IMG/VR virus record: IMGVR_UViG_2681813321_000010
Reading direction: 5' to 3' (one strand)
DNA length: 12,244 bases
DNA from: a virus
Lineage: Duplodnaviria; Heunggongvirae; Uroviricota; Caudoviricetes
The notes beneath the pieces are model-generated. The model saw nothing but the letters and a program-made list of their open reading frames with translations. It did not search any database and was not told the origin of the DNA. How positions within the stretch are numbered: position 1 is the first letter of the stretch; each line of letters begins with the position of its first letter. Of the stretch, positions 1 through 10,266 are shown in pieces. The translations under genes were made by a program, and so were the position numbers.

Positions 1-135
1 TGCCTGGTGCCTCCAGGTGACGTTAACCAGTTAACAATTAACGCCGGATACAGAGAATCCACCCATAACACTGTTTTTGGTTTTAACTGTTCCGCGTGCG
101 CTCAGCCGCATTCACCGCATCACAAAATTCACTTT

Positions 136-193
136 AAAAACGGCGGCAGAGCAGTCACGGAGTAAAACTGATACCGCCAAACGTCACCAGAAA
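136..193 (-). ncRNA. dicF: DicF small RNA (cell-division inhibitor sRNA) with intrinsic terminator
   Basis: Minus-strand sequence TTTCTGGTGACGTTTGGCGGTATCAGTTTTACTCCGTGACTGCTCTGCCGCCGTTTTT matches my recollection of E. coli DicF; GGCGG/CCGCC stem followed by a T-run; located downstream of ydfC as in Qin. Confidence 0.8.
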
Positions 194-533
194 ATTGATA
201 ACAGAGGGCGTTGCAGCGGGGTTGTCGCTTAAGCGTATGGTCAACCTGACAACCCGGTGTCCTCAACGGGGAAGGAATAACCCCGCCATACTTACCGCCG
301 CGCCATTTCGCGGAGTGCCACAACCGGAAGCGCACGGTCGACGAAAATTTAACGACAGGCTATCTATGAACCAGCTACCTCGCCGTGCGCTTTCGCGTTA
401 TGGTCTGACTTTTCATGGAAATATCCTTTCAGTAAACTGTCAGTGCCGGATGCTCACCCATGTCCGGCGCACGCACTCCACCTCACCCGTGGAGAACTCC
501 TTAATTACCAACCTTAGCTTCGTTGGTTAGCTA

Positions 534-752
534 TTAACGCGGGTATGTAATCATTCTGGCAATGCTTAATGCCGCTGCTTTTTCCAGCCTGGTGATATCC
601 TGCTCCAGAGCGGACAGATTTTCAGCCTGCTTAGCCCTGGCTTCATTGGCCCATTTCAGATCCTGCGCTGCATTAATTTTCTGGCGCATCCACTCATAAA
701 GTTCATCATCGGTATAGTCTGGCGAGATGATGACGGGTTCTCGTTTCTGCAT
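534..752 (-). CDS. ydfC: YdfC, 72-aa Qin-type prophage protein
   Basis: 72-aa ORF in the track; GAGG ribosome-binding site upstream of the ATG; size and position after ydfB match the dicB operon. Confidence 0.8.
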   Translation of the reverse strand: MQKREPVIISPDYTDDELYEWMRQKINAAQDLKWANEARAKQAENLSALEQDITRLEKAAALSIARMITYPR

Positions 753-781
753 ACTGATTCCTCGCGGTGCTGCTTCGCTTA

Positions 782-910
782 TCAGCCGTTAGATTTTGCC
801 GAGCTGGAAAGCGCCTGTTTAAACTCACTGAAGCTGAGAGCTTCTTCGCCTTCGGCAAGGCCTTCGAAGTATTCTTCGTAAGCCTTTTCCATGATTGTGT
901 CGAAATCCAT
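782..910 (-). CDS. ydfB: YdfB, 42-aa small protein (below the ORF-track size cutoff)
   Basis: Manual translation of the minus strand gives MDFDTIMEKAYEEYFEGLAEGEEALSFSEFKQALSSSAKSNG; its ATG overlaps the ydfA stop (TGATATG); 42 aa matches known YdfB length. Confidence 0.75.
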   Translation of the reverse strand: MDFDTIMEKAYEEYFEGLAEGEEALSFSEFKQALSSSAKSNG

Positions 911-911
911 A

Positions 912-1067
912 TCACTCACCTGAGTTTCTTTCCAGCCAGCGACGGGCACCATTTTCGGTTTTAAACGTTTTGCTTCTGGTATACGTCATCGCGGTAAACG
1001 TGCCGTCCTGGTTGGGAAACACGCCGTACACCAGAGATTCGTTGTTGCCAAGATCGATAGTATCCAT
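912..1067 (-). CDS. ydfA: YdfA, 51-aa small protein
   Basis: Internal ATG of the 69-aa track ORF with a GAGG ribosome-binding site gives MDTIDLGNNESLVYGVFPNQDGTFTAMTYTRSKTFKTENGARRWLERNSGE; 51 aa matches YdfA; first gene after dicA as in Qin. Confidence 0.8.
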   Translation of the reverse strand: MDTIDLGNNESLVYGVFPNQDGTFTAMTYTRSKTFKTENGARRWLERNSGE

Positions 1068-1147
1068 GCTGACCTCATTTCCCCTTAACGCTGGGGTAGC
1101 GGAACTGTTTGCTGAGAACACCGTGCGGTGTGTTGATGCAAATAAGA

Positions 1148-1200
1148 TTAGCCATGGCTAACATATAGGTCAAGTGATTTTGTATGTTATGGCTAACATG
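1148..1200. promoter_or_regulatory. Putative DicA operator pair in the dicA-ydfA intergenic region (dicB-operon promoter region)
   Basis: Perfect palindrome TTAGCCATGGCTAA (1148-1161) and ATGTTA-TGGC-TAACAT (1185-1200) share TTAG/CTAA half-sites with the dicA-dicC intergenic palindromes. Confidence 0.5.
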
Positions 1201-1233
1201 ATTGATGTGGTAAAAGATAACTCATTGATGATG

Positions 1234-1641
1234 TTATCTTTTATTTGTCCGCTGACGGGCTTTTAGTAATTCTTCAAAGAGTTTATTGAAGTTTTTTACT
1301 CGAGCTCGCATTTCGGCGAGCTGGGTATCCTGTTCTGATTCTGGCAGTGCATTAAACAGCTCAAGGAGCTCTAGTTCTTTGGGGGATAAGGCAACTGGCT
1401 TCTCAACAGGTGGTGTTGGTTGCTTGTCTTCATCGCCAAATAGAATCCATGTTGGTGAGCATTGCAATACTTTGCTGAGGGCAAAAAGGTTCTTCCCTGT
1501 AGGTTCACTATCATCCCGTTCCCATTGTGATACAGACACATGGGAGATTTTCAGGGCTTTAGCAAGAGACCTTTGGGTGTGTTTGAGGTTTTTCCGACGA
1601 TACCTAATGCGTTCGCCGATAGTTAAATTTTTTGTTTCCAT
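1234..1641 (-). CDS. dicA: DicA, HTH (Xre-family) repressor of the dicB operon; CI-like immunity repressor
   Basis: 135-aa product METKNLTIGERIRYRRKNLKHTQRSLAKALKISHVSVSQWE... matches my recollection of E. coli K-12 DicA; N-terminal HTH; divergent from dicC. Confidence 0.92.
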   Translation of the reverse strand: METKNLTIGERIRYRRKNLKHTQRSLAKALKISHVSVSQWERDDSEPTGKNLFALSKVLQCSPTWILFGDEDKQPTPPVEKPVALSPKELELLELFNALPESEQDTQLAEMRARVKNFNKLFEELLKARQRTNKR

Positions 1642-1643
1642 AG

Positions 1644-1708
1644 TTAGCTAATGCTAAATCGTATTGACTATGTTTTTGTTAACATCTATTTTGTTAGTTA
1701 TGACTAAC
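1644..1708. promoter_or_regulatory. dicA-dicC divergent control region: two operator palindromes and a candidate rightward promoter
   Basis: TTAGC-TAAT-GCTAA (1644-1657) abuts the dicA start codon; TTGACT (1664-1669), 17-bp spacer, TATTTT (1687-1692); GTTAGT-TATG-ACTAAC (1693-1708) just downstream of the -10. Confidence 0.55.
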
Positions 1709-1724
1709 AATAAAGGTGTTTTAA

Positions 1725-1955
1725 ATGCTTAAAACTGACGCTCTTTTGTATTTCGGTTCAAAAACAAAACTTGCACAAGCAGCAGGTATTCGTTTGGCTT
1801 CGCTTTATAGCTGGAAAGGGGATTTAGTTCCCGAAGGTCGCGCGATGCGTCTACAGGAGGCATCTGGCGGGGAGCTTCAGTATGATCCCAAAGTTTATGA
1901 TGAATATCGTAAGACGAAGCGGGCGGGGCGGTTGAACAATGAAAATCACTCCTGA
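1725..1955 (+). CDS. dicC: DicC, Cro-like regulator
   Basis: 76-aa product MLKTDALLYFGSKTKLAQAAGIRLASLYSWKGDLVPEGRAMRLQEASGGELQYDPKVYDEYRK... matches my recollection of DicC; divergent from dicA. Confidence 0.9.
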   Translation: MLKTDALLYFGSKTKLAQAAGIRLASLYSWKGDLVPEGRAMRLQEASGGELQYDPKVYDEYRKTKRAGRLNNENHS

Positions 1956-2460
1956 ACAGGCTCGTGAGGCTCTGGATGCCTGGATATGTCGACCAGGAAT
2001 GACACAGGAGCAGGCGACGATATTAATCACTGAAGCATTCTGGGCTTTGAAAGAGCGCCCGAACATCGATGTTCAGCGTGTCACAGATGAAGGTGGCGCG
2101 GTTGATCAGCGAGCGCTTGGCGTTAATCGAGTGAAGATATTCGAACGCTGGAAGGCTATCGACACCAGGGATAAGCGTGAAAAGTTCACGGCGCTAGTGC
2201 CTGCGATTATGGAGGCTATCCGGATTAGTGATTTCAGGTTGTATCGTGAGATCAGTGATGGAAAAAGTATTACGTACATGATCGCCGGGTTAAATAAAGA
2301 ATATGGCGATGTGGTGGAATCCGGACTGCTTTTTGCAGATCCTGCCGTTGTAGATCGTGAAACTGACGAACTTATAGAAAAAGCAATTGCTTTCAAGCTT
2401 GCGTATCGACAGCAATACCAACAAAAAGCTGGATGGAATTATGAGTCTTCTTTTTGCTGA
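1939..2460 (+). CDS. YdaT-like protein in the CII position (putative regulator)
   Basis: 173-aa ORF overlapping the dicC 3' end; segment VKIFERWKAIDTRDKREKFTALVPAIMEAI resembles the YdaT-family core as I recall it; family assignment is from memory only. Confidence 0.6.
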   Translation: MKITPEQAREALDAWICRPGMTQEQATILITEAFWALKERPNIDVQRVTDEGGAVDQRALGVNRVKIFERWKAIDTRDKREKFTALVPAIMEAIRISDFRLYREISDGKSITYMIAGLNKEYGDVVESGLLFADPAVVDRETDELIEKAIAFKLAYRQQYQQKAGWNYESSFC

Positions 2461-3406
2461 ACGCCCACTGGTTATAAACACGCAGCTGGCAATGAAAATT
2501 GGCTTAAACGAAGCCATTGTTTTGCAACAACTGCACTACTGGTTGAGAGATACCAACTCCGGCATGGAATGTGATGGTGTTCGCTGGATTTATAACACAA
2601 CGGAACAATGGCTGGAACAGTTCCCATTCTGGTCAGAGTCAACGTTAAAGCGCGCGTTTGCAAGTCTGAAAACGCTGGGGCTTTTGCGTTGTGAAAAGCT
2701 CAATAAATCAAAGCGCGATATGACCAATTTCTACACGATCAACTACGGGAGCGAGCTTTTAGATGGTGGCAAATTGAGCGAATCCATCGGTTTAAAATGC
2801 GCCGCTCCATCAGGTCAAAATGACACGATGGAAGAGGTCAAAATGAAACGCTCCATTGGTTCAAAACGACTCAATGTCATCGGGTCAAAATGGCCTGATG
2901 ATCTTACAGAGAATACAACAGAGATTACTACAGAGAATAAAAAGACTTCTCGTCCGGAAGCTTCGCAACCGGACCCGCAGACGGTTGAACAGGATTTTTT
3001 AACCCGACACCCTGACGCGGTTGTGTTCAGTGCGAAAAAACGCCAGTGGGGCAGCCAGGAAGATTTGGCGTGTGCGCAGTGGATCTGGGGGCGAATCGTG
3101 AGTCTTTACGAGCAGGCCGCCAGCGATGATGGCGAGATTTCGCGACCGAAAGAACCCAACTGGACCGCATGGGCCAACGACGTGCGCACAATGCGGATGC
3201 TGGATGGCAGAACTCACAGACAAATTTGTGAAATGTTTGGTCGGGTGCAGCGGGATCCATTCTGGGTAAAAAATATCATGAGTCCGTCAAAGCTTCGCGA
3301 AAAATGGGATGAACTGGTTATCCGCCTGGGGCGTTCGTCTGTACAGCGTTGTGTGAATCATATTTCTGAGCCGGATACCGAAATTCCGCCGGGCTTCAGG
3401 GGGTAA
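2441..3406 (+). CDS. Replication initiator, lambda O-like (N-terminal DNA-binding domain, TE-rich linker, C-terminal domain)
   Basis: Track ORF begins at TTG 2387; the ATG at 2441 overlaps the upstream stop (ATGAGTCTT...TGA) and is the likelier start; contains iterons plus an AT-rich tract inside the coding sequence, as lambda O does. Confidence 0.75.
   Translation: MSLLFAERPLVINTQLAMKIGLNEAIVLQQLHYWLRDTNSGMECDGVRWIYNTTEQWLEQFPFWSESTLKRAFASLKTLGLLRCEKLNKSKRDMTNFYTINYGSELLDGGKLSESIGLKCAAPSGQNDTMEEVKMKRSIGSKRLNVIGSKWPDDLTENTTEITTENKKTSRPEASQPDPQTVEQDFLTRHPDAVVFSAKKRQWGSQEDLACAQWIWGRIVSLYEQAASDDGEISRPKEPNWTAWANDVRTMRMLDGRTHRQICEMFGRVQRDPFWVKNIMSPSKLREKWDELVIRLGRSSVQRCVNHISEPDTEIPPGFRG
2783..2941 (+). 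repeat. Putative replication origin inside the O-like gene: five iterons followed by three 12-bp A-rich repeats
   Basis: Iterons of consensus about TCCATCGGGTCAAAATG starting at 2783, 2806, 2829, 2852, 2876 (23-24 bp period); then ACAGAGAATACA / ACAGAGATTACT / ACAGAGAATAAA at 2906-2941. Confidence 0.7.
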
Positions 3407-3446
3407 GTGTTAATTTCTGGTCATGAGGTAATTTTCAGGAGGGCTT

Positions 3447-3869
3447 GTGGCAAAAGTTTTTACACAAGAAGAGCGGGAAAAAATTAAAGGGCAGGTTGTT
3501 GAACTCGTACGCCGGAGTGGGCGTGAGACGTTACGGCAACTGGAAGTCAAGACAGGTGCGACAAGATATCTGATGAGCGTTCTCGCAAGAGAGCTGGTTG
3601 CCAGCGGCGATGTATACAACTCTGGTTACGGGTTATTCCCGTCTGAACAGGCGCGTAAGGACTGGCAAAATGCCCGTAAAAAGCTCTCAAGGGCAAAGCT
3701 GAAGGAACCATCTGCGGTTGATCCGGACCTTATCTGGTCATTACCTGACGGAGAAATACGTCGCTACGACAGGCGTCAGAACATAATCTGTCGCGAGTGC
3801 CGGAAGAGTGAAGTTATGCAGCGCATACTAGCATTCTATCAGGGAAATGCTCGATATTTATTGAAGTGA
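3447..3869 (+). CDS. Hypothetical 140-aa protein in the P position after the initiator (C-terminal CxxC)
   Basis: GTG start 4 nt after AGGAGG (3437-3442); the paralog at 7824 has ATG at the same relative position after AGGAGG; conserved between the two modules. Confidence 0.75.
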   Translation: MAKVFTQEEREKIKGQVVELVRRSGRETLRQLEVKTGATRYLMSVLARELVASGDVYNSGYGLFPSEQARKDWQNARKKLSRAKLKEPSAVDPDLIWSLPDGEIRRYDRRQNIICRECRKSEVMQRILAFYQGNARYLLK

Positions 3870-4121
3870 TGAGATTAAAGTTTATTAGTTCAGATATTGA
3901 TTGGCTCTTTTGTGGAGTAGGGTAGAGTTAGTGTGTTTGTCTGCTTGGTGCCAGCAGCGGATATGTTTAACAACAGAAAGCATTCAGCATGGTTAGTGGA
4001 TTTGCAAAGTGGATTAGGATTTGAGAAACTTTGATGAAGTTGTAAAGCTTGTTTCTATAAAAATAGAAATTTAACTAATAGTTAAACACACCTCCAGCTT
4101 CATTGAAAAGGATTATTAGCT

Positions 4122-4547
4122 ATGATTGATCCACTTATTAGAAACTTACAGAGTGATATTGCACTACTCCAGCTTTATATCGCGCAACGCAAACAGGCAG
4201 GCTTTCATGACATGGAAAGAATAATTGAGTCATTGACCATCTTTATGTTTCGCGCGCTGAAAATGGGTGAACTGGTAAACATGAATCAGATTAAAGTTAA
4301 TTTTCCCGCCATTGATTTAGCTGATAATAAAAACATGATAGCAGTTCAAGTTACTACGAATGCAAGTCCAGCAAAAATTAAAAAAACTATCGAATCTTTT
4401 GAGAAAATAAATGAAATAGGAGAGAGTCTGAAAGATAAATACTCTACTTTATATATTTTTGGTTTTAACTGTTCCGCGTGCGCTCAGCCGCATTCACCGC
4501 ATCACAAAATTCACTTTAAAAACGGCGGCAGAGCAGTCACGGAGTAA
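4122..4547 (+). pseudogene. Probable 5' fragment of an AT-rich cargo gene, truncated at the repeat junction (about 4456); the ORF tail runs into the dicF region
   Basis: Strongly AT-rich codons up to 4455, then the last ~30 codons lie in repeat sequence whose copy-1 equivalent (74-165) is preceded by unrelated DNA; ORF end overlaps dicF copy 2 on the opposite strand. Confidence 0.45.
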
Positions 4548-4575
4548 AACTGATACCGCCAAACGTCACCAGAAA
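4518..4575 (-). ncRNA. dicF: DicF small RNA, second copy
   Basis: Identical to 136-193 at offset 4382; in this copy the repeat ends about 60 bp downstream of the terminator, so no dicB can follow. Confidence 0.8.
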
Positions 4576-4915
4576 ATTGATAACAGAGGGCGTTGCAGCG
4601 GGGTTGTCGCTTAAGCGTATGGTCAACCTGACAACCCGGTGTCCTCAACGGGGAAGGAATAACCCCGCCATACTTACCGCCGCGCCATTTCGCGGAGTGC
4701 CACAACCGGAAGCGCACGGTCGACGAAAATTTAACGACAGGCTATCTATGAACCAGCTACCTCGCCGTGCGCTTTCGCGTTATGGTCTGACTTTTCATGG
4801 AAATATCCTTTCAGTAAACTGTCAGTGCCGGATGCTCACCCATGTCCGGCGCACGCACTCCACCTCACCCGTGGAGAACTCCTTAATTACCAACCTTAGC
4901 TTCGTTGGTTAGCTA

Positions 4916-5134
4916 TTAACGCGGGTATGTAATCATTCTGGCAATGCTTAATGCCGCTGCTTTTTCCAGCCTGGTGATATCCTGCTCCAGAGCGGACAGA
5001 TTTTCAGCCTGCTTAGCCCTGGCTTCATTGGCCCATTTCAGATCCTGCGCTGCATTAATTTTCTGGCGCATCCACTCATAAAGTTCATCATCGGTATAGT
5101 CTGGCGAGATGATGACGGGTTCTCGTTTCTGCAT
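4916..5134 (-). CDS. ydfC: YdfC, second copy
   Basis: 72-aa ORF identical in protein to 534-752. Confidence 0.8.
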   Translation of the reverse strand: MQKREPVIISPDYTDDELYEWMRQKINAAQDLKWANEARAKQAENLSALEQDITRLEKAAALSIARMITYPR

Positions 5135-5163
5135 ACTGATTCCTCGCGGTGCTGCTTCGCTTA

Positions 5164-5292
5164 TCAGCCGTTAGATTTTGCCGAGCTGGAAAGCGCCTGT
5201 TTAAACTCACTGAAGCTGAGAGCTTCTTCGCCTTCGGCAAGGCCTTCGAAGTATTCTTCGTAAGCCTTTTCCATGATTGTGTCGAAATCCAT
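5164..5292 (-). CDS. ydfB: YdfB, second copy (42 aa)
   Basis: DNA identical to 782-910 at offset 4382. Confidence 0.75.
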   Translation of the reverse strand: MDFDTIMEKAYEEYFEGLAEGEEALSFSEFKQALSSSAKSNG

Positions 5293-5293
5293 A

Positions 5294-5449
5294 TCACTCA
5301 CCTGAGTTTCTTTCCAGCCAGCGACGGGCACCATTTTCGGTTTTAAACGTTTTGCTTCTGGTATACGTCATCGCGGTAAACGTGCCGTCCTGGTTGGGAA
5401 ACACGCCGCATACCAGAGATTCGTTGTTGCCAAGATCGATAGTATTCAT
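5294..5449 (-). CDS. ydfA: YdfA, second copy (51 aa, two substitutions relative to copy 1)
   Basis: Same internal ATG as copy 1; product MNTIDLGNNESLVCGVFPNQ... Confidence 0.8.
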   Translation of the reverse strand: MNTIDLGNNESLVCGVFPNQDGTFTAMTYTRSKTFKTENGARRWLERNSGE

Positions 5450-5529
5450 GCTGACCTCATTTCCCCTTAACGCCGGGGTAGCGGAACTGTTTGCTGAGAA
5501 CACCGTGCGGTGTCTTGGTGGAGATTAAT

Positions 5530-5579
5530 TTAGAATAACCTAACAAATGTAGCAAGTATTTTTGTTAGATTGGTCTAAC
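5530..5579. promoter_or_regulatory. Putative operator pair downstream of the dicA-like gene (module 2 leftward-operon control region)
   Basis: TTAGAATAACCTAA (5530-5543) and palindrome GTTAGA-TTGG-TCTAAC (5564-5579); same TTAG/CTAA half-site logic as module 1. Confidence 0.45.
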
Positions 5580-5616
5580 AAAAAGAGTGAGGGAATCTAA
5601 GTATCTGAAAGGAGTG

Positions 5617-6024
5617 TTATTTTATTGATTTGTTTTTACGTGCTTTAAGCATTTCTTCGAAGAGTTTATTGAAATTCTCTACTCTTGCGCGCATTTCAGA
5701 CAGTAAGGCTTCCTGCTCGGAGGAGGGAAGAGCATCGAATAATTCGATCAATTCTTTGTGGCTGGGAGTTAACTCGGTTTCCACATGAAGTTCTTGTGCT
5801 GGCACTGGTGCCTTGTCTTCGTCACCAAACATTAGCCATGTAGGCGAGCACTTCAGCGCATCAGCTAAAGCAAATAACCGCTTCCCGACCGGTTGGGTTT
5901 CGTCTCTTTCCCATTGTGAAATTGTGACGTGAGCTACCCCAGCGAGGCGTGCAGCTTCTCGTTGTGTTAGGCGTAATTCTTTTCGTCGTGCCAGAACTCG
6001 CTGGCCTAGGGTTCTTGTATCCAT
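5617..6024 (-). CDS. DicA-like HTH repressor, divergent paralog (CI-like immunity repressor of module 2)
   Basis: 135 aa; C-terminal half nearly identical to DicA (...CSPTW..FGDEDK...EMRARV.NFNKLFEE.LKAR), N-terminal HTH diverged (QREAARLAGVAHVTISQWE). Confidence 0.85.
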   Translation of the reverse strand: MDTRTLGQRVLARRKELRLTQREAARLAGVAHVTISQWERDETQPVGKRLFALADALKCSPTWLMFGDEDKAPVPAQELHVETELTPSHKELIELFDALPSSEQEALLSEMRARVENFNKLFEEMLKARKNKSIK

Positions 6025-6030
6025 AGTTAG

Positions 6031-6090
6031 GTAATTCTAATTTTTCTTGACTTAGGTATCCCGCGCACATTACTGTTAGGAATATCTAAC
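6031..6090. promoter_or_regulatory. Module 2 divergent control region with operator palindromes
   Basis: TTAGGTAATTCTAA (6031-6044) abuts the dicA-like start; TTGACT at 6047-6052; GTTAGGAATATCTAAC (6075-6090) precedes the dicC-like gene. Confidence 0.45.
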
Positions 6091-6104
6091 AAGAGGGGGC
6101 TTTG

Positions 6105-6332
6105 ATGCTTAAAGTTGACGCAATTACTTTTTTTGGCAGCAAAACAAAACTTGCCAATGCCGCAGGAGTGAAACTGGCAAGTGTTGCTGCATGGGGGGAA
6201 CTGGTTCCTGAAGGTCGCGCGATGCGCCTGCAAGAGGCATCCGGCGGGGAACTTCAGTACGACCCCAAAGTTTATGACGAATATCGTAAGGCAAAGCGGG
6301 CGGGGCGGTTGAACAATGAAAATCACCCCTGA
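6105..6332 (+). CDS. DicC-like Cro-type regulator (paralog)
   Basis: Track ORF starts at TTG 6102; ATG at 6105 preceded by GAGGGGG; product about 85% identical to DicC by eye. Confidence 0.85.
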   Translation: MLKVDAITFFGSKTKLANAAGVKLASVAAWGELVPEGRAMRLQEASGGELQYDPKVYDEYRKAKRAGRLNNENHP

Positions 6333-6837
6333 ACAGGTTTGTGAGGCTCTGGATGCCTGGGTATGCCGACCAGGAATGACACAGGAGCAGGCGACGATAT
6401 TAATCACGGAAGCATTCTGGGCTCTGAAAGAACGCCCGAACATCGATGTTCAACGCGTCACGTTTAATGATGGCGAGGTTGATCAACGGGCGTTGGGCGT
6501 TAACCGGGTGAAGATATTCGAACGCTGGAAAGCTATCGACACCAGGGATAAGCGGGAAAAATTCACGGCGCTGATTCCGGCAATTATGGAGGCTATCCGG
6601 ATCAGCGATTTCAGGTTGTATTGTGAAATTACTGACGGAAAAAGCATTACGTACATGATCGCCGGGTTAAACAAAGAATATGGTGATGTGGTGGAGTCCG
6701 GGCTGCTTTTTGCGGATCCATCTGTTGTGGAACGTGAGACTGACGAGCTTATAGAAAAAGCTATTGCTTTCAAGCATGCGTATCGTCAGCAATACCAACA
6801 AAAAGCTGGATGGAATTATGAGCCTTCTTTTTGCTGA
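6316..6837 (+). CDS. YdaT-like protein in the CII position (paralog of 1939-2460)
   Basis: 173 aa, roughly 90% identical by eye to the module 1 copy; same overlap arrangement with neighbouring genes. Confidence 0.6.
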   Translation: MKITPEQVCEALDAWVCRPGMTQEQATILITEAFWALKERPNIDVQRVTFNDGEVDQRALGVNRVKIFERWKAIDTRDKREKFTALIPAIMEAIRISDFRLYCEITDGKSITYMIAGLNKEYGDVVESGLLFADPSVVERETDELIEKAIAFKHAYRQQYQQKAGWNYEPSFC

Positions 6838-7783
6838 ACGCCCACTGGTTATAAACACACAGCTTGCGATGAAGATTGGCTTAAATGAAGCCATTGTGTT
6901 GCAGCAGTTGCATTACTGGTTGAGAGATACCAGTTCCGGTATGGAATGTGACGGGGTTCGCTGGATTTATAACACAACAGAACAATGGCTGGAACAGTTC
7001 CCGTTCTGGTCAGAGTCAACGTTAAAACGCGCATTTGCAAGTCTGAAAACGCTGGGGCTTTTGCGTTGCGAAAAGCTCAACAAATCAAAGCGTGATATGA
7101 CTAATTTTTACACGATTAATTACGAGAGTGAGCTTTTAGATGGTGGCAAAGTGAGCGAATCCATCAGGTCAAAATGCGCCGCTCCATCGGGTCAAAATGA
7201 CACGATGGAAGAGGTCAAAATGGCACGCTCCATTGGTTCAAAACGACCCAATGTCATCGGGTCAAAATGGCCTGATGATCTTACAGAGAATACAACAGAG
7301 ATTACTACAGAGAATAAAAACACTTCTCGTCCGGAAGCTTCGCAACCGGACCCGCAGACGGCTGAACAGGATTTTTTAACCCGACACCCTGACGCGGTTG
7401 TGTTCAGTGCGAAAAAACGCCAGTGGGGAAGTCAGGAAGATTTGGCGTGCGCACAGTGGATCTGGGGACGAATCGTGAGTCTTTACGAGCAGGCTGCCAG
7501 CGATGATGGCGAGATCACGCGACCGAAAGAACCAAACTGGACCGCATGGGCCAATGACGTGCGCACAATGCGGATGCTGGATGGCAGAAGCCACAGACAA
7601 ATTTGCGAAATGTTTGGTCGGGTACAGCGAGATCCATTCTGGGTAAAAAACATCATGAGCCCGTCAAAGCTTCGCGAAAAATGGGACGACCTGGTCATCC
7701 GCCTGGGGCGTTCACCTGTACAGTGTTGTGTGAATCATATTTCTGAACCGGATACCGAAATTCCGCCTGGTTTCAGGGGATAA
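6818..7783 (+). CDS. Replication initiator, lambda O-like (paralog)
   Basis: ATG at 6818 overlaps the upstream stop exactly as in module 1; carries the equivalent iterons. Confidence 0.75.
   Translation: MSLLFAERPLVINTQLAMKIGLNEAIVLQQLHYWLRDTSSGMECDGVRWIYNTTEQWLEQFPFWSESTLKRAFASLKTLGLLRCEKLNKSKRDMTNFYTINYESELLDGGKVSESIRSKCAAPSGQNDTMEEVKMARSIGSKRPNVIGSKWPDDLTENTTEITTENKNTSRPEASQPDPQTAEQDFLTRHPDAVVFSAKKRQWGSQEDLACAQWIWGRIVSLYEQAASDDGEITRPKEPNWTAWANDVRTMRMLDGRSHRQICEMFGRVQRDPFWVKNIMSPSKLREKWDDLVIRLGRSPVQCCVNHISEPDTEIPPGFRG
7160..7318 (+). repeat. Putative replication origin of module 2 (five iterons plus A-rich 12-bp repeats)
   Basis: Iterons begin at 7160, 7183, 7206, 7229, 7253, the same positions as module 1 at offset 4377. 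Confidence 0.7.
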
Positions 7784-7823
7784 GTGGTGATTTTAGGGCA
7801 TAAAGTAATGTTCAGGAGGACTT

Positions 7824-8231
7824 ATGGCAAAAGTATTTACACAGGAAGAGCGGGAAAAAATTAAAGGACAGGTGGTGGAACTCGTGCGCCAGAGCGGTCG
7901 TGAGACGTTACGGCAACTGGAAGCTAAAACAGGTGCGACAAGATATCTGATGAGCGTTCTTGCCAGAGAGCTGGTTGCCAGTGGTGATGTATATCACTCT
8001 GGCTATGGGGTGTTCCCGTCAGAACGGGCTCGTAAGGACTGGCAAAACGCCCGCAAAAAACTCTCGAGGGCAAAGGTGAAGAAACCTGTTGTGGTTGATC
8101 CGGGCCTTATCTGGACATTACCCGACGGAGAAATACGCCGCTACGACAGGCGTATGAACATAATCTGTCGCGAGTGCCGGAAGAGCGAAGTTATGCAGCG
8201 TGTATTGGCGTTCTATCAGGGATATGCCTAG
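7824..8231 (+). CDS. Hypothetical 135-aa protein in the P position (paralog of 3447-3869)
   Basis: ATG 4 nt after AGGAGG; about 90% identical by eye to the module 1 copy. Confidence 0.75.
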   Translation: MAKVFTQEEREKIKGQVVELVRQSGRETLRQLEAKTGATRYLMSVLARELVASGDVYHSGYGVFPSERARKDWQNARKKLSRAKVKKPVVVDPGLIWTLPDGEIRRYDRRMNIICRECRKSEVMQRVLAFYQGYA

Positions 8232-8599
8232 AATTGTCACAGGTAATGAAATTAAAGAGTATTGGTTCGGATATGAATTGACATTTTCGCGGCACAGAGC
8301 TAAAAATAGCCTACTTGTTGGTTTTGTGTGAAAAGCAGACATTTTGAGGCTCAGGATTTGTTATCAAATAAGACCAATACTTATCTATATTAATACACAT
8401 TAAATACTGTGCAATACATTATTGCATTTTATTAGATAAGCGATATTTAGGGAAAAGAAAAGTCATAGAAAACAGGCCGCTATTTGTTGTTGGATTTTAT
8501 AGGCTATATCTAGATTATCTTGCCACTGCGGTCTCTGTTTACCTAACAGCTTGGGCTTCTTTGCATGCAAGTTTGTAATAACAAGAGTAATCAAACGGA

Positions 8600-9631
8600 A
8601 TGTCTATTAATCCTAAACTTAAGCGTATCGCGCGACGCTATCCAGCGTTATTCCAATATGAGTCCCCCTATATGGCAAGAAAATTAATAATATTCGGCAA
8701 CGGTCTCGGTATGGCTTTAGATCCTGCTCACTTCTCCTTAGACAGAGCGTTGGAAGAAATTTGGCATCGCCCCAATTTTTTAAAAGATATCCACAAGCAA
8801 CTTATCGAGCGTTGTCTTCAGCGGCAAGGTCCACCAGAAGGAGAACATGAGTTGGATACCCTTCACCAGGCTGTCACATATTGTAAAGCTCTTGCTCAAA
8901 TTGGAGAGGGGAACGTGCATTGGCTTACTGAAGATGGACTAAACTTCCCCAAAATTACCGCCACTTATATTCACAAAGTTGCAACCAGGTTGCATAATTA
9001 CGATAAAGGTTTGCCACAAAGATTCGAAAATGCGCTTGTGGAGTTTGTAAAGAACACACACTCACATATCGCGACATTAAACTATGACAAATTATTATAC
9101 AATTCATTCATAGATAATGATATATTCAACGGGTATGATGGGGTTTTAGTTGATGGGATGCTAAGCCACGGATTTTCCTCTGCAGCGCTCGAACGGAAAT
9201 ACAATCGTAGGTTTGGTTATTATTTGCACTTGCATGGTTCACCACTATTTATTAATCAGCATGAAAATGTTTTAAAACTTTCACGCTCACAACTTACTCT
9301 TGACATAGATGAACCTAGTGAGCATATAGTGTTAACTCATATAAAAAGAAAACCGTCAGTTATAGCAGCATCTAATGTTCTTTCTACGTACTGGGATTAT
9401 TTGCAGTTTGCATTATTTGAATCAGAAGAAATAATATTGTTTGGTTACTCTGGTCTCGATATTCACCTTAACCTGCTTATTCGACCTTACCTAACCTCTA
9501 AGCCTTTAAGAGTAATTGAGTGGAGCGGTGCTGGTGAACAAAACGCTCGTGAGATATATTGGAAAAACCAGTTGAGACGGGAAGTTACTGTAATTAGGTT
9601 GGATAACATCACTGATTTTATTGATTGGTAG
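8600..9631 (+). CDS. SIR2-like (SIR2_2-type) single-domain protein, candidate NAD-consuming defence or abortive-infection effector
   Basis: 343 aa, AT-rich codon usage; ordered motifs LIIFGNGLG (Rossmann-like), TLNYDKL (sirtuin-type N/D), YLHLHGS (His), ILFGYSGLD, in the same order as SIR2-like domains such as Thoeris ThsA; preceded by about 370 bp of AT-rich DNA. Confidence 0.6.
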   Translation: MSINPKLKRIARRYPALFQYESPYMARKLIIFGNGLGMALDPAHFSLDRALEEIWHRPNFLKDIHKQLIERCLQRQGPPEGEHELDTLHQAVTYCKALAQIGEGNVHWLTEDGLNFPKITATYIHKVATRLHNYDKGLPQRFENALVEFVKNTHSHIATLNYDKLLYNSFIDNDIFNGYDGVLVDGMLSHGFSSAALERKYNRRFGYYLHLHGSPLFINQHENVLKLSRSQLTLDIDEPSEHIVLTHIKRKPSVIAASNVLSTYWDYLQFALFESEEIILFGYSGLDIHLNLLIRPYLTSKPLRVIEWSGAGEQNAREIYWKNQLRREVTVIRLDNITDFIDW

Positions 9632-9701
9632 CGCAATGCGAAGTTAAAGAGGCAGCCTCATATTTATCAGAGCTGGTGTACGTCCAATACAGGAGGTTAT
9701 C

Positions 9702-9791
9702 GTGCTGGTTCTCAAATGCGCGCTGGCTATTGCGGCTGTAGTGGCAATTTATTGTCTTGCTATTGTTCTTATGGATCGCCTTTCTGATTGA
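9702..9791 (+). CDS. Candidate 29-aa hydrophobic single-helix peptide (VLVLKCALAIAAVVAIYCLAIVLMDRLSD)
   Basis: GTG start 5 nt after a perfect AGGAGG (9691-9696); uniformly hydrophobic core of about 20 residues; below the ORF-track size cutoff. Confidence 0.4.
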   Translation: MLVLKCALAIAAVVAIYCLAIVLMDRLSD

Positions 9792-10002
9792 TTTTATATT
9801 GGCGAGGTGACGGGAGTTAAGTAGAATTGCTGCGGGTGCTTGAGGCTGTCTGCCTCGGGCATGCCACCGTAAGGCAGACAGAGAAAAGCCCCAGTTAACA
9901 TTACGCGTCCTGCAAGACGCTTAACATTAATCTGAGGCCCAATCTATGCTTCACAAACGTAGGTTAGCCTCTTACGCGCCGAAAGGCAAGGAGAAGCAGG
10001 CT

Positions 10003-10158
10003 ATGAAGCAGCAAAAGGCGATGTTAATCGCCCTGATCGTCATCTGTTTAACCGTCATAGTGACGGCACTGGTAACGAGGAAAGACCTCTGCGAGGTACG
10101 AATCCGAACCGGCCAGACGGAGGTCGCTGTCTTCACAGCTTACGAACCTGAGGAGTAA
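10003..10158 (+). CDS. hokD: HokD (RelF), Hok/Gef-family type I membrane toxin
   Basis: MKQQKAMLIALIVICLTVIVTALVTRKDLCEVRIRTGQTEVAVFTAYEPEE matches my recollection of HokD and the Hok signature (TRK.LCE.R...G..EVA.F.AYE); the track ORF from 9946 is an in-frame upstream extension. Confidence 0.85.
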   Translation: MKQQKAMLIALIVICLTVIVTALVTRKDLCEVRIRTGQTEVAVFTAYEPEE

Positions 10159-10226
10159 GAGACCAGGCGGGGGAGAAATCCCTCGCCACCGCTGATGTGT
10201 CAGGCATCCTCAACGCACCCGCACTT

Positions 10227-10253
10227 AACCCGCTTCGGCGGGTTTTTGTTTTT
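10227..10253 (+). terminator. Intrinsic terminator after hokD
   Basis: CCCGC-TTCG-GCGGG stem-loop (10229-10242) followed by TTTTTGTTTTT. Confidence 0.8.
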
Positions 10254-10266
10254 ATTTTCAACGCAT

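Follow-up and report, generated by a model that had tools for sequence, protein, structure and literature searches.

The segment at about positions 9799–10254 of the window, the 12,244-nt stretch of viral DNA analyzed here, is very probably a complete hok/mok/sok type I toxin-antitoxin cassette, controlled in the same manner as hok/sok of plasmid R1 and hokW-sokW. It represents a hokD allele with its native leader, sited inside a lambda-like prophage. Homology to known loci, the cis elements of the family, two alternative predicted folds of the mRNA and covariation among related loci are all observed for this copy. The cassette is of an already known kind, an ordinary copy of hok/sok, and its sequence points to solely allelic differences from the characterized hokW-sokW system.

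The coding sequence is readily assigned. The 51-residue product matches the Pfam family PF01848 (HOK_GEF) with 82.9 bits (cut-off 22) and PHROG 251 ("MokW-like host killing"), and it is 100% identical in amino acid sequence to HokD of Escherichia coli K-12. The leader, which the initial annotation had described as structured, matched the Rfam model RF01794 over the full model length (positions 9834–10008, plus strand; 116.2 bits, gathering score 59, E = 1.8e-26). Although this model is named "sok", it was built on the hok-sense strand; its consensus starts with GGGUGCUUGAGG / GGGUGCUUGA and finishes at the hok AUG. What it models is therefore the leader of hok mRNAs, and the match identifies the sequence upstream of hokD as a canonical hok leader. 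We located the following features in and around it, with the elements (tac, fbi, ucb, dcb, mok, Sok) named as in PMC9841398:

9799–9827, plus strand: predicted hok mRNA promoter from a consensus scan; -35 hexamer TTGGCG (9799–9804), 17-nt spacer, -10 hexamer TAGAAT (9822–9827).
9834–9845, plus strand: tac (translational activator element), GGGUGCUUGAGG; 5'-terminal element of the hok mRNA.
9846–9881, plus strand: 5' hairpin adjoining tac, with a 10-bp perfect inverted repeat (9846–9855 with 9872–9881).
9886–9892, plus strand: ucb (upstream complementary box, anti-Shine-Dalgarno), AAGCCCC; invariant in 38 aligned loci.
About 9954 to 9884, minus strand: predicted Sok RNA of about 71 nt; the coordinates map onto the annotated sokW misc_RNA of phage 933W.
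9934–9937, plus strand: mok Shine-Dalgarno sequence GAGG, 8 nt before the ATG at 9946; invariant in the 38 loci.
9946–10158, plus strand: mok frame of 70 codons, ending at the hok stop codon (10156–10158).
9961–9971, plus strand: dcb (downstream complementary box); AGGUU pairs with AAUCU (9941–9945) and GCCUC with GAGGC (9934–9938).
9961–9989, minus strand: Sok promoter; -35 hexamer TTGCCT (complement of 9984–9989), 17-nt spacer, -10 hexamer TAACCT (complement of 9961–9966), start at about 9954.
10003–10158, plus strand: hokD toxin gene, 51 amino acids plus stop; Shine-Dalgarno sequence GGAG at 9990–9993.
10166–10187, plus strand: 3' stem-loop GGCGGGGGA-GAAA-UCCCUCGCC, present in the full-length and truncated folds and 95–98% paired across the 38 loci.
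10208–10220, plus strand: fbi (fold-back inhibitory element), CCUCAA-C-GCACCC, which pairs with tac; the two are seen as inverted repeats.
10227–10254, plus strand: intrinsic terminator of the hok mRNA; stem at 10227–10244, then a T-run.

Transcription of hok probably starts at about 9831–9834. Of the predicted promoter, the -10 hexamer and everything 3' of it are kept in phage 933W. The perfect inverted repeat seen by eye in the initial annotation is genuine: CTGTCTGCCT and AGGCAGACAG are exact reverse complements, and they lie within a longer, imperfect 21-nt repeat (9835–9855 with 9872–9892). Relative to 933W, the 9848/9879 pair of this hairpin shows a compensatory change from G-C to A-U.

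Translation from the ATG at 9946 would run in the same frame as hok, whose own ATG lies 57 nt (19 codons) further downstream, at 10003. The proposal that this in-frame extension could act as a mok-like coupling frame fits well with what we found, as it is the counterpart of the annotated mokW of 933W. An ATG is kept at this site in 36 of the 38 aligned loci, while the frame that it opens varies, being in phase with hok in most loci, shifted by +1 in Kluyvera-type loci and reduced to a 19-codon ORF in two. Conservation of the start codon with a varying frame supports a role of mok in translational coupling rather than a role of the Mok peptide.

The initial annotation had advised folding the leader in search of fbi, tac and ucb pairings, and tac/fbi, ucb/Shine-Dalgarno and tac/ucb pairings all appeared in the predicted folds. 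In the minimum-energy fold of the full-length RNA (419 nt, 9834–10252; z = -6.0 against shuffles), tac pairs with fbi over 12 bp, and residues in and next to ucb pair with the mok Shine-Dalgarno region (9888–9890 with 9936–9938, 9892–9894 with 9932–9934), so that the mok Shine-Dalgarno sequence is sequestered. When the 3' end was removed up to the stem-loop at 10166–10187 (361 nt; z = -5.0), tac paired instead with ucb in the minimum-energy fold. As modeled, this exchange of tac/fbi for tac/ucb is the full-length/truncated switch that defines hok mRNAs. Once truncated, the RNA pairs its mok Shine-Dalgarno sequence with 9948–9953 instead of with dcb in the minimum-energy fold, although the Shine-Dalgarno/dcb complementarity exists and is invariant; the corresponding helix is part of the Rfam consensus structure, and its GAGGC/GCCUC pairs are unchanged in the 38 loci. 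By analogy with the model for plasmid R1 (PMC9841398), the stem-loop at 10166–10187 would be the point at which 3' exonucleolytic trimming halts, and thus the end of the truncated mRNA.

One question that could not be decided by eye was whether the locus encodes a Sok-like antisense RNA. As far as sequence can tell, the answer is yes: the region aligns with sokW, carries the same promoter hexamers and folds on the minus strand into a 5' tail, a hairpin and a U-tail. The predicted Sok RNA comprises a single-stranded 5' tail of about 14 nt over the mok start, a long hairpin and a GGGGCUUUU (CUCU) tail, with a folding energy of -29.2 kcal/mol (z = -5.2 against shuffles). The same interval, 9884–9954, read on the plus strand is the Sok target on the mRNA. 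Its hairpin is about 10 kcal/mol more stable on the minus strand (-26.6 kcal/mol) than on the plus strand, that is, in the mRNA (-16.8 kcal/mol), because two G.U pairs of the minus strand become C.A mismatches on the plus strand. The direct repeat around a GCGTC/GACGC palindrome, placed by the initial annotation at about 9895–9932, falls into this interval, with TTAACATTA at 9895–9903 and 9921–9929 on either side of CGCGTC (9904–9909) and GACGC (9916–9920). In the predicted structures, the Sok hairpin and its target are built from these repeats and the palindrome. Of the 38 aligned loci, 24 lack the GCGTC/GACGC apex of about 20 nt.

A generic promoter scan did not find the Sok promoter, because TAACCT fits just three of the six consensus positions; we located it by alignment to sokW and with the help of published mutagenesis primers. 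Both hexamers are identical to those of sokW in 933W and Sp5, and all 38 loci keep the 17-nt spacer between them. The -10 hexamer overlaps dcb. Primers YO-421 and YO-422 replace exactly TAACCTA, yielding the sokW "pro-less" construct, in which antitoxin activity is lost (PMC8621323).

To compare the leader across species, 53 hok loci were gathered from species-representative genomes, and the 38 distinct loci that carry a leader, from five genera (Escherichia, Kluyvera, Photorhabdus, Pantoea and Citrobacter), were aligned with MAFFT. For the full-length structure, 90.4% of cells pair, as opposed to 42–47% with the partners slid. Fourteen pairs change on both sides, among them the one at tac position 4, which forms U-A with fbi in 23 loci and C-G in 11. 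Four of the 13 pairs of the 5' hairpin likewise change on both sides, and pairs at the base of the Sok/target hairpin covary (AU in 25 loci and GC in 13; GC in 21 and AU in 13). In the distal half of tac/fbi (columns 8–12), the alignment inflates the count of positions scored as not paired, since Photorhabdus lacks the bulged C and its distal stem is shifted by one column; pairing was recomputed for each locus with RNAduplex. A 12-bp tac/fbi duplex was thereby recovered at a fixed site in the 3' UTR, 45–56 nt past the hok stop codon, in 36 of the 38 loci, with matched variants GAGG/CCUC, GAGA/UCUC and GAAG/CUUC. The two exceptions are visibly damaged: in one (L016) the 3' UTR diverges right past the 3' hairpin, and in the other (L048, from Shigella) the hok frame is corrupted. 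As a control, the energies of shuffled 3' UTRs carry little weight here, since these regions are G+C-rich and some shuffles come near the observed value; the argument rests on the fixed position and the compensatory changes. No covariation was found for tac/ucb or Shine-Dalgarno/dcb in the 38 loci; as the positions concerned are invariant, covariation speaks neither for nor against these two helices. Such constancy is consistent with bases that need to be able to pair with either of two partners.

Taking the plasmid R1 paradigm and hokW-sokW as a guide, both RNAs of the present copy would be transcribed, the mRNA would be processed at its 3' end and the duplex cut by RNase III, and the toxin would be active and have a biological role. 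The promoter at 9799–9827 would give rise to a hok mRNA of about 417–420 nt, which, locked by tac-fbi and ucb-mok Shine-Dalgarno pairing, would be neither translated nor bound by Sok. Slow trimming from the 3' end to the stem-loop at 10166–10187 would remove fbi, upon which tac would pair with ucb and free the mok Shine-Dalgarno sequence. Ribosomes translating mok from 9946 would then pass through the hok start and make Hok synthesis possible. Sok, presumed to be short, unstable and constitutively transcribed from the minus-strand TTGCCT-17-TAACCT promoter (from about 9954 to 9884), would pair with the mok start region, thereby blocking translation of mok, and hence of hok, and marking the duplex for RNase III. 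Once Sok transcription stops, upon loss or induction of the prophage, the stable pool of mRNA would yield Hok, which would damage the inner membrane. Sok instability, stability and 3' trimming of the hok mRNA, and duplex cleavage by RNase III have been shown for R1 (PMC9841398); the same behavior of the RNAs has in part been shown for hokW (PMC8621323). By analogy, the cassette could serve prophage retention, help lysis as reported for hokW, or act in abortive infection.

A structurally intact cassette could also be a physiologically inert relic that neither kills upon loss nor affects phage biology. We consider this unlikely, even though several observations lend it some plausibility. The -10 hexamers of both the hok and the Sok promoter are weak. 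In addition, the chromosomal hokA, hokB and hokC loci are reported to be unable to mediate post-segregational killing, as cited in a preprint (bioRxiv 10.1101/2025.08.07.668861). Codon 47 of the present HokD specifies Tyr, and RNA-edited Cys at this position is linked to toxicity; according to the same preprint, full toxicity may depend on A-to-I editing that turns Tyr47 into Cys. On the other hand, the HokD coding sequence has been described as toxic in the literature, and the 93%-identical hokW-sokW is active in its native prophage (PMC8621323). All elements are intact in the window copy, and the tac/fbi covariation across genera implies continuing selection. Moreover, damaged copies are easily recognized, as in the two exceptions above (L016, L048) and in the leader loss of K-12, and the window copy is not among them.

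The genes upstream of the cassette bear on a second alternative. As the initial annotation had it, the neighbors are a SIR2-like gene, whose 343-aa product weakly matches SIR2_2 (26.1 bits, cut-off 24.5), and a mini-ORF of 29 codons (9702–9791). It is highly improbable that hokD is expressed only as the last gene of a read-through operon from these two genes, in the manner of relB-relE-hokD, with the leader repeats serving as an attenuator or terminator. The genes do share one orientation with short gaps between them, and hokD of K-12 lacks a leader of its own. Yet conservation sets in at about 9814 irrespective of the upstream gene, be it SIR2-like, DUF2326, SMEK with a methyltransferase or Ren-like, and we therefore regard the cassette as an autonomous module with its own -10 hexamer. 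The repeats, furthermore, fit the hok leader family at 116 bits, and no T-run follows the 5' hairpin.

That the leader repeats arose by chance, or are generic palindromes without any role in regulation, is hardly conceivable: short repeats are common, and several other 8–10-nt repeats in the window are probably due to chance, but the fold z-scores of -5 to -6, the Rfam E-value of 1.8e-26, the compensatory change relative to 933W and the covariation in the 38 loci effectively refute this reading for the leader.

The mini-ORF encodes a conserved, hydrophobic and unannotated product and ends 8 nt before the hok -35 hexamer; searches of Pfam, NCBIfam, PHROGs and PADLOC returned nothing for its 29 residues. 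It might specify a small membrane peptide that acts together with the hok cassette, and the two could likewise form the constant downstream boundary of a slot in which prophages swap accessory or defense genes, but both ideas are tentative and we rate them as rather doubtful. Candidate contents of such a slot are SIR2-like, DUF2326, SMEK with a methyltransferase, and relBE.

As stated in the initial annotation, relBE is missing here: a tblastn search found neither relB nor relE anywhere in the window (best E-value 2.6). The setting thus differs from the relBEF type, in which relB and relE lie directly upstream of a leaderless hokD; in the window the full leader is present. The initial annotation's statement that hokD follows relB-relE in the Qin prophage of K-12 was borne out by the MG1655 gene order, relB-relE-hokD-rem-ydfU. 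K-12 does not resemble the window until about 9989, 14 nt short of the hok ATG, and has the end of relE upstream; from there on, hokD, fbi, the terminator and rem are nearly the same in the two. We conclude that relBE replaced the leader of hokD in K-12.

The initial annotation had implied that a hokD with a leader and no relBE is an oddity, and on this point the survey contradicts it. Of 5426 complete E. coli genomes, 4260 carried the 155-nt leader (at least 80% coverage), at a median of two and up to eight copies, while the relE-hokD junction occurred in 1173. The arrangement with the intact leader is therefore the norm, and relBE-hokD of K-12 is a derived minority arrangement. In a search with the whole window, no record among the 5426 genomes carried its tandem 3.8-kb repeat as such.

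Since the 1980s, the hok/sok family has served as a paradigm of antisense RNA control. Its phage-borne member hokW-sokW, nearly identical to the copy in the window, is annotated in the 933W record and has been characterized experimentally (PMC8621323), and the present cassette is accordingly of little discovery value. The useful points concern annotation. At such loci, RefSeq labels only the hokD coding sequence and nothing over the leader, so that the mok frame and the Sok RNA are invisible to users of the annotation and the arrangement looks unfamiliar. In addition, K-12, the usual reference, has the truncated, Sok-less form, which makes intact copies look unusual even though they are the majority.

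Among known systems, the closest is hokW/mokW/sokW of the Stx2 phages 933W (AF125520) and Sp5 (VT2-Sakai), with 92.8% nucleotide identity to 933W over 9814–10230. 933W is also a lambda-like phage; its hokW locus has the same order of elements, mok is the same 19-codon in-frame extension, and its record annotates the SokW antisense RNA. The extended Sok hairpin of the window is likewise shared with sokW of 933W and Sp5. Differences are confined to four residues at the Hok C-terminus (TAYEPEE in the window, VDYESEK in HokW), about five positions within the 5' tail of Sok and the corresponding target, the sequence past fbi, where the window has a K-12-type terminator and 933W has other sequence in its place, and the location, as hokW occupies another position in the phage genome with other neighboring genes. 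None of the elements carries a difference that would disable it, and one of the stem differences is compensatory. For the Sp5 copy, Takada et al. 2021 (PMC8621323) found that HokW is toxic, that sokW expressed from its own promoter neutralizes it, that mutation of the sokW -10 hexamer ends protection, and that hokW-sokW is active in the native prophage context, with earlier lysis on induction shown for hokW.

relB-relE-hokD (relF) of the K-12 Qin prophage shares an identical hokD coding sequence with the window and is almost the same in the 3' UTR, with fbi and terminator, and in the downstream rem gene. K-12 hokD, however, has no hok promoter, tac, ucb, Sok target, mok start or Sok promoter, which leaves its fbi without a partner.

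The hokC (gef)/mokC/sokC-type chromosomal loci show about 82% Hok amino acid identity. They have the same tac and fbi and an in-frame mok, but their Sok hairpin is short, their Sok promoter has another -10 hexamer, and the distal part of the tac/fbi stem contains G.U pairs where the window has G-C. Finally, hok/sok (parB) of plasmid R1 belongs to the same Rfam and Pfam families and has the same elements and the same predicted full-length/truncated switch, but resides on a plasmid rather than in a prophage, and its Sok hairpin lacks the roughly 20 nt that the GCGTC/GACGC apex adds in the window. The R1 mok frame is out of frame with hok, whereas that of the window is in frame. In sequence the R1 system is distant, HokW and R1 Hok being 44% identical in amino acids (PMC8621323).

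Within an alignment of 38 distinct leader-carrying hok loci (MAFFT alignment A3), the GCGTC/GACGC apex (positions 9904–9920; A3 columns 73–92) represents an extension of about 20 nt at the hairpin formed by the Sok antisense RNA and by its mRNA target. Among the aligned loci, this apex is restricted to those of the hokD/hokW type and some from Kluyvera. As it is present in some loci and missing from 24 of the 38, Sok RNAs come in two forms, one with a short and one with a long hairpin.

In a bioRxiv preprint, hokD mRNA was described as A-to-I edited at codon 46, yielding Cys (10.1101/2025.08.07.668861). The only hokD Tyr codon near the reported position is the following:

10141–10144, plus strand: hokD Tyr47 codon, UAC, which with the next G reads UACG

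In the predicted full-length fold, this UACG is unpaired. A second UACG in the hokD gene of the window, at 10097, falls on a Val codon, for which the counterpart in the Stx2 phage 933W reads GUG.

Upstream of the predicted hok/mok/sok cassette, the window contains the following features:

74–3903 and 4456–8280: prophage early/immunity module, two tandem direct copies
141–192 and 4523–4574, minus strand: DicF sRNA genes, one per module copy (72.5 bits each)
8600–9631, plus strand: gene for a 343-residue, SIR2-like protein (weak SIR2_2 match)
9702–9791, plus strand: hydrophobic mini-ORF of 29 codons with a GTG start, preceded by a Shine-Dalgarno sequence, AGGAGG, at 9692–9697

The mini-ORF, whose predicted product is MLVLKCALAIAAVVAIYCLAIVLMDRLSD, stops 8 nt short of the −35 hexamer of the hok cassette, and mini-ORF and cassette co-occur in approximately 1600 genomes. 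The mini-ORF's frame is conserved in phage HannyBb and in E. coli SA31-1, with changes that are synonymous or conservative. The peptide found no match in Pfam, NCBIfam, PHROGs or PADLOC, and RefSeq and the four phage records examined carry no annotation for the mini-ORF on its strand.

RefSeq labels the 343-residue protein a “SIR2 family protein”; it scored 26.1 bits against SIR2_2 (cut-off 24.5) and gave weak PADLOC matches to SIR2 and PDC-S21. In other prophages, the position 5′ of the hok cassette is occupied by DUF2326, by SMEK and a methyltransferase, by a Ren-like gene or by relBE. This exchange of genes at the same position suggests that the slot is a variable site for accessory or defence genes.

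The two copies of the early/immunity module are 87% identical over 3.86 kb. Besides its DicF gene, each one has genes for a DicA-like repressor and for YdaT, along with a replication gene and a DUF977 gene. The duplicated arrangement was absent from all 5426 complete E. coli genomes searched; in the best matches among them, it was collapsed to a single copy.

Cassettes of the hokD type, with 88–99% identity, are also found on E. coli plasmids of about 90–140 kb (matches H87–H103), which are for the most part non-mobilizable. In addition, hokD with 96–100% identity is present on short contigs assigned to Acinetobacter idrijaensis (L018, 275 bp) and Xanthomonas pisi (L023, 431 bp), where it probably represents E. 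coli or phage DNA contaminating these non-enterobacterial assemblies.

A relE-hok junction of the K-12 type was found at the following loci:

L028: Kluyvera sp. CHPC 1.2972
L007 and L044: E. coli

In the Kluyvera locus, the relE-end sequence upstream of hok is nearly identical to that of K-12, and the adjoining hok is only 70% identical to HokD. Leader replacement by relBE therefore extends beyond the hokD allele of K-12.
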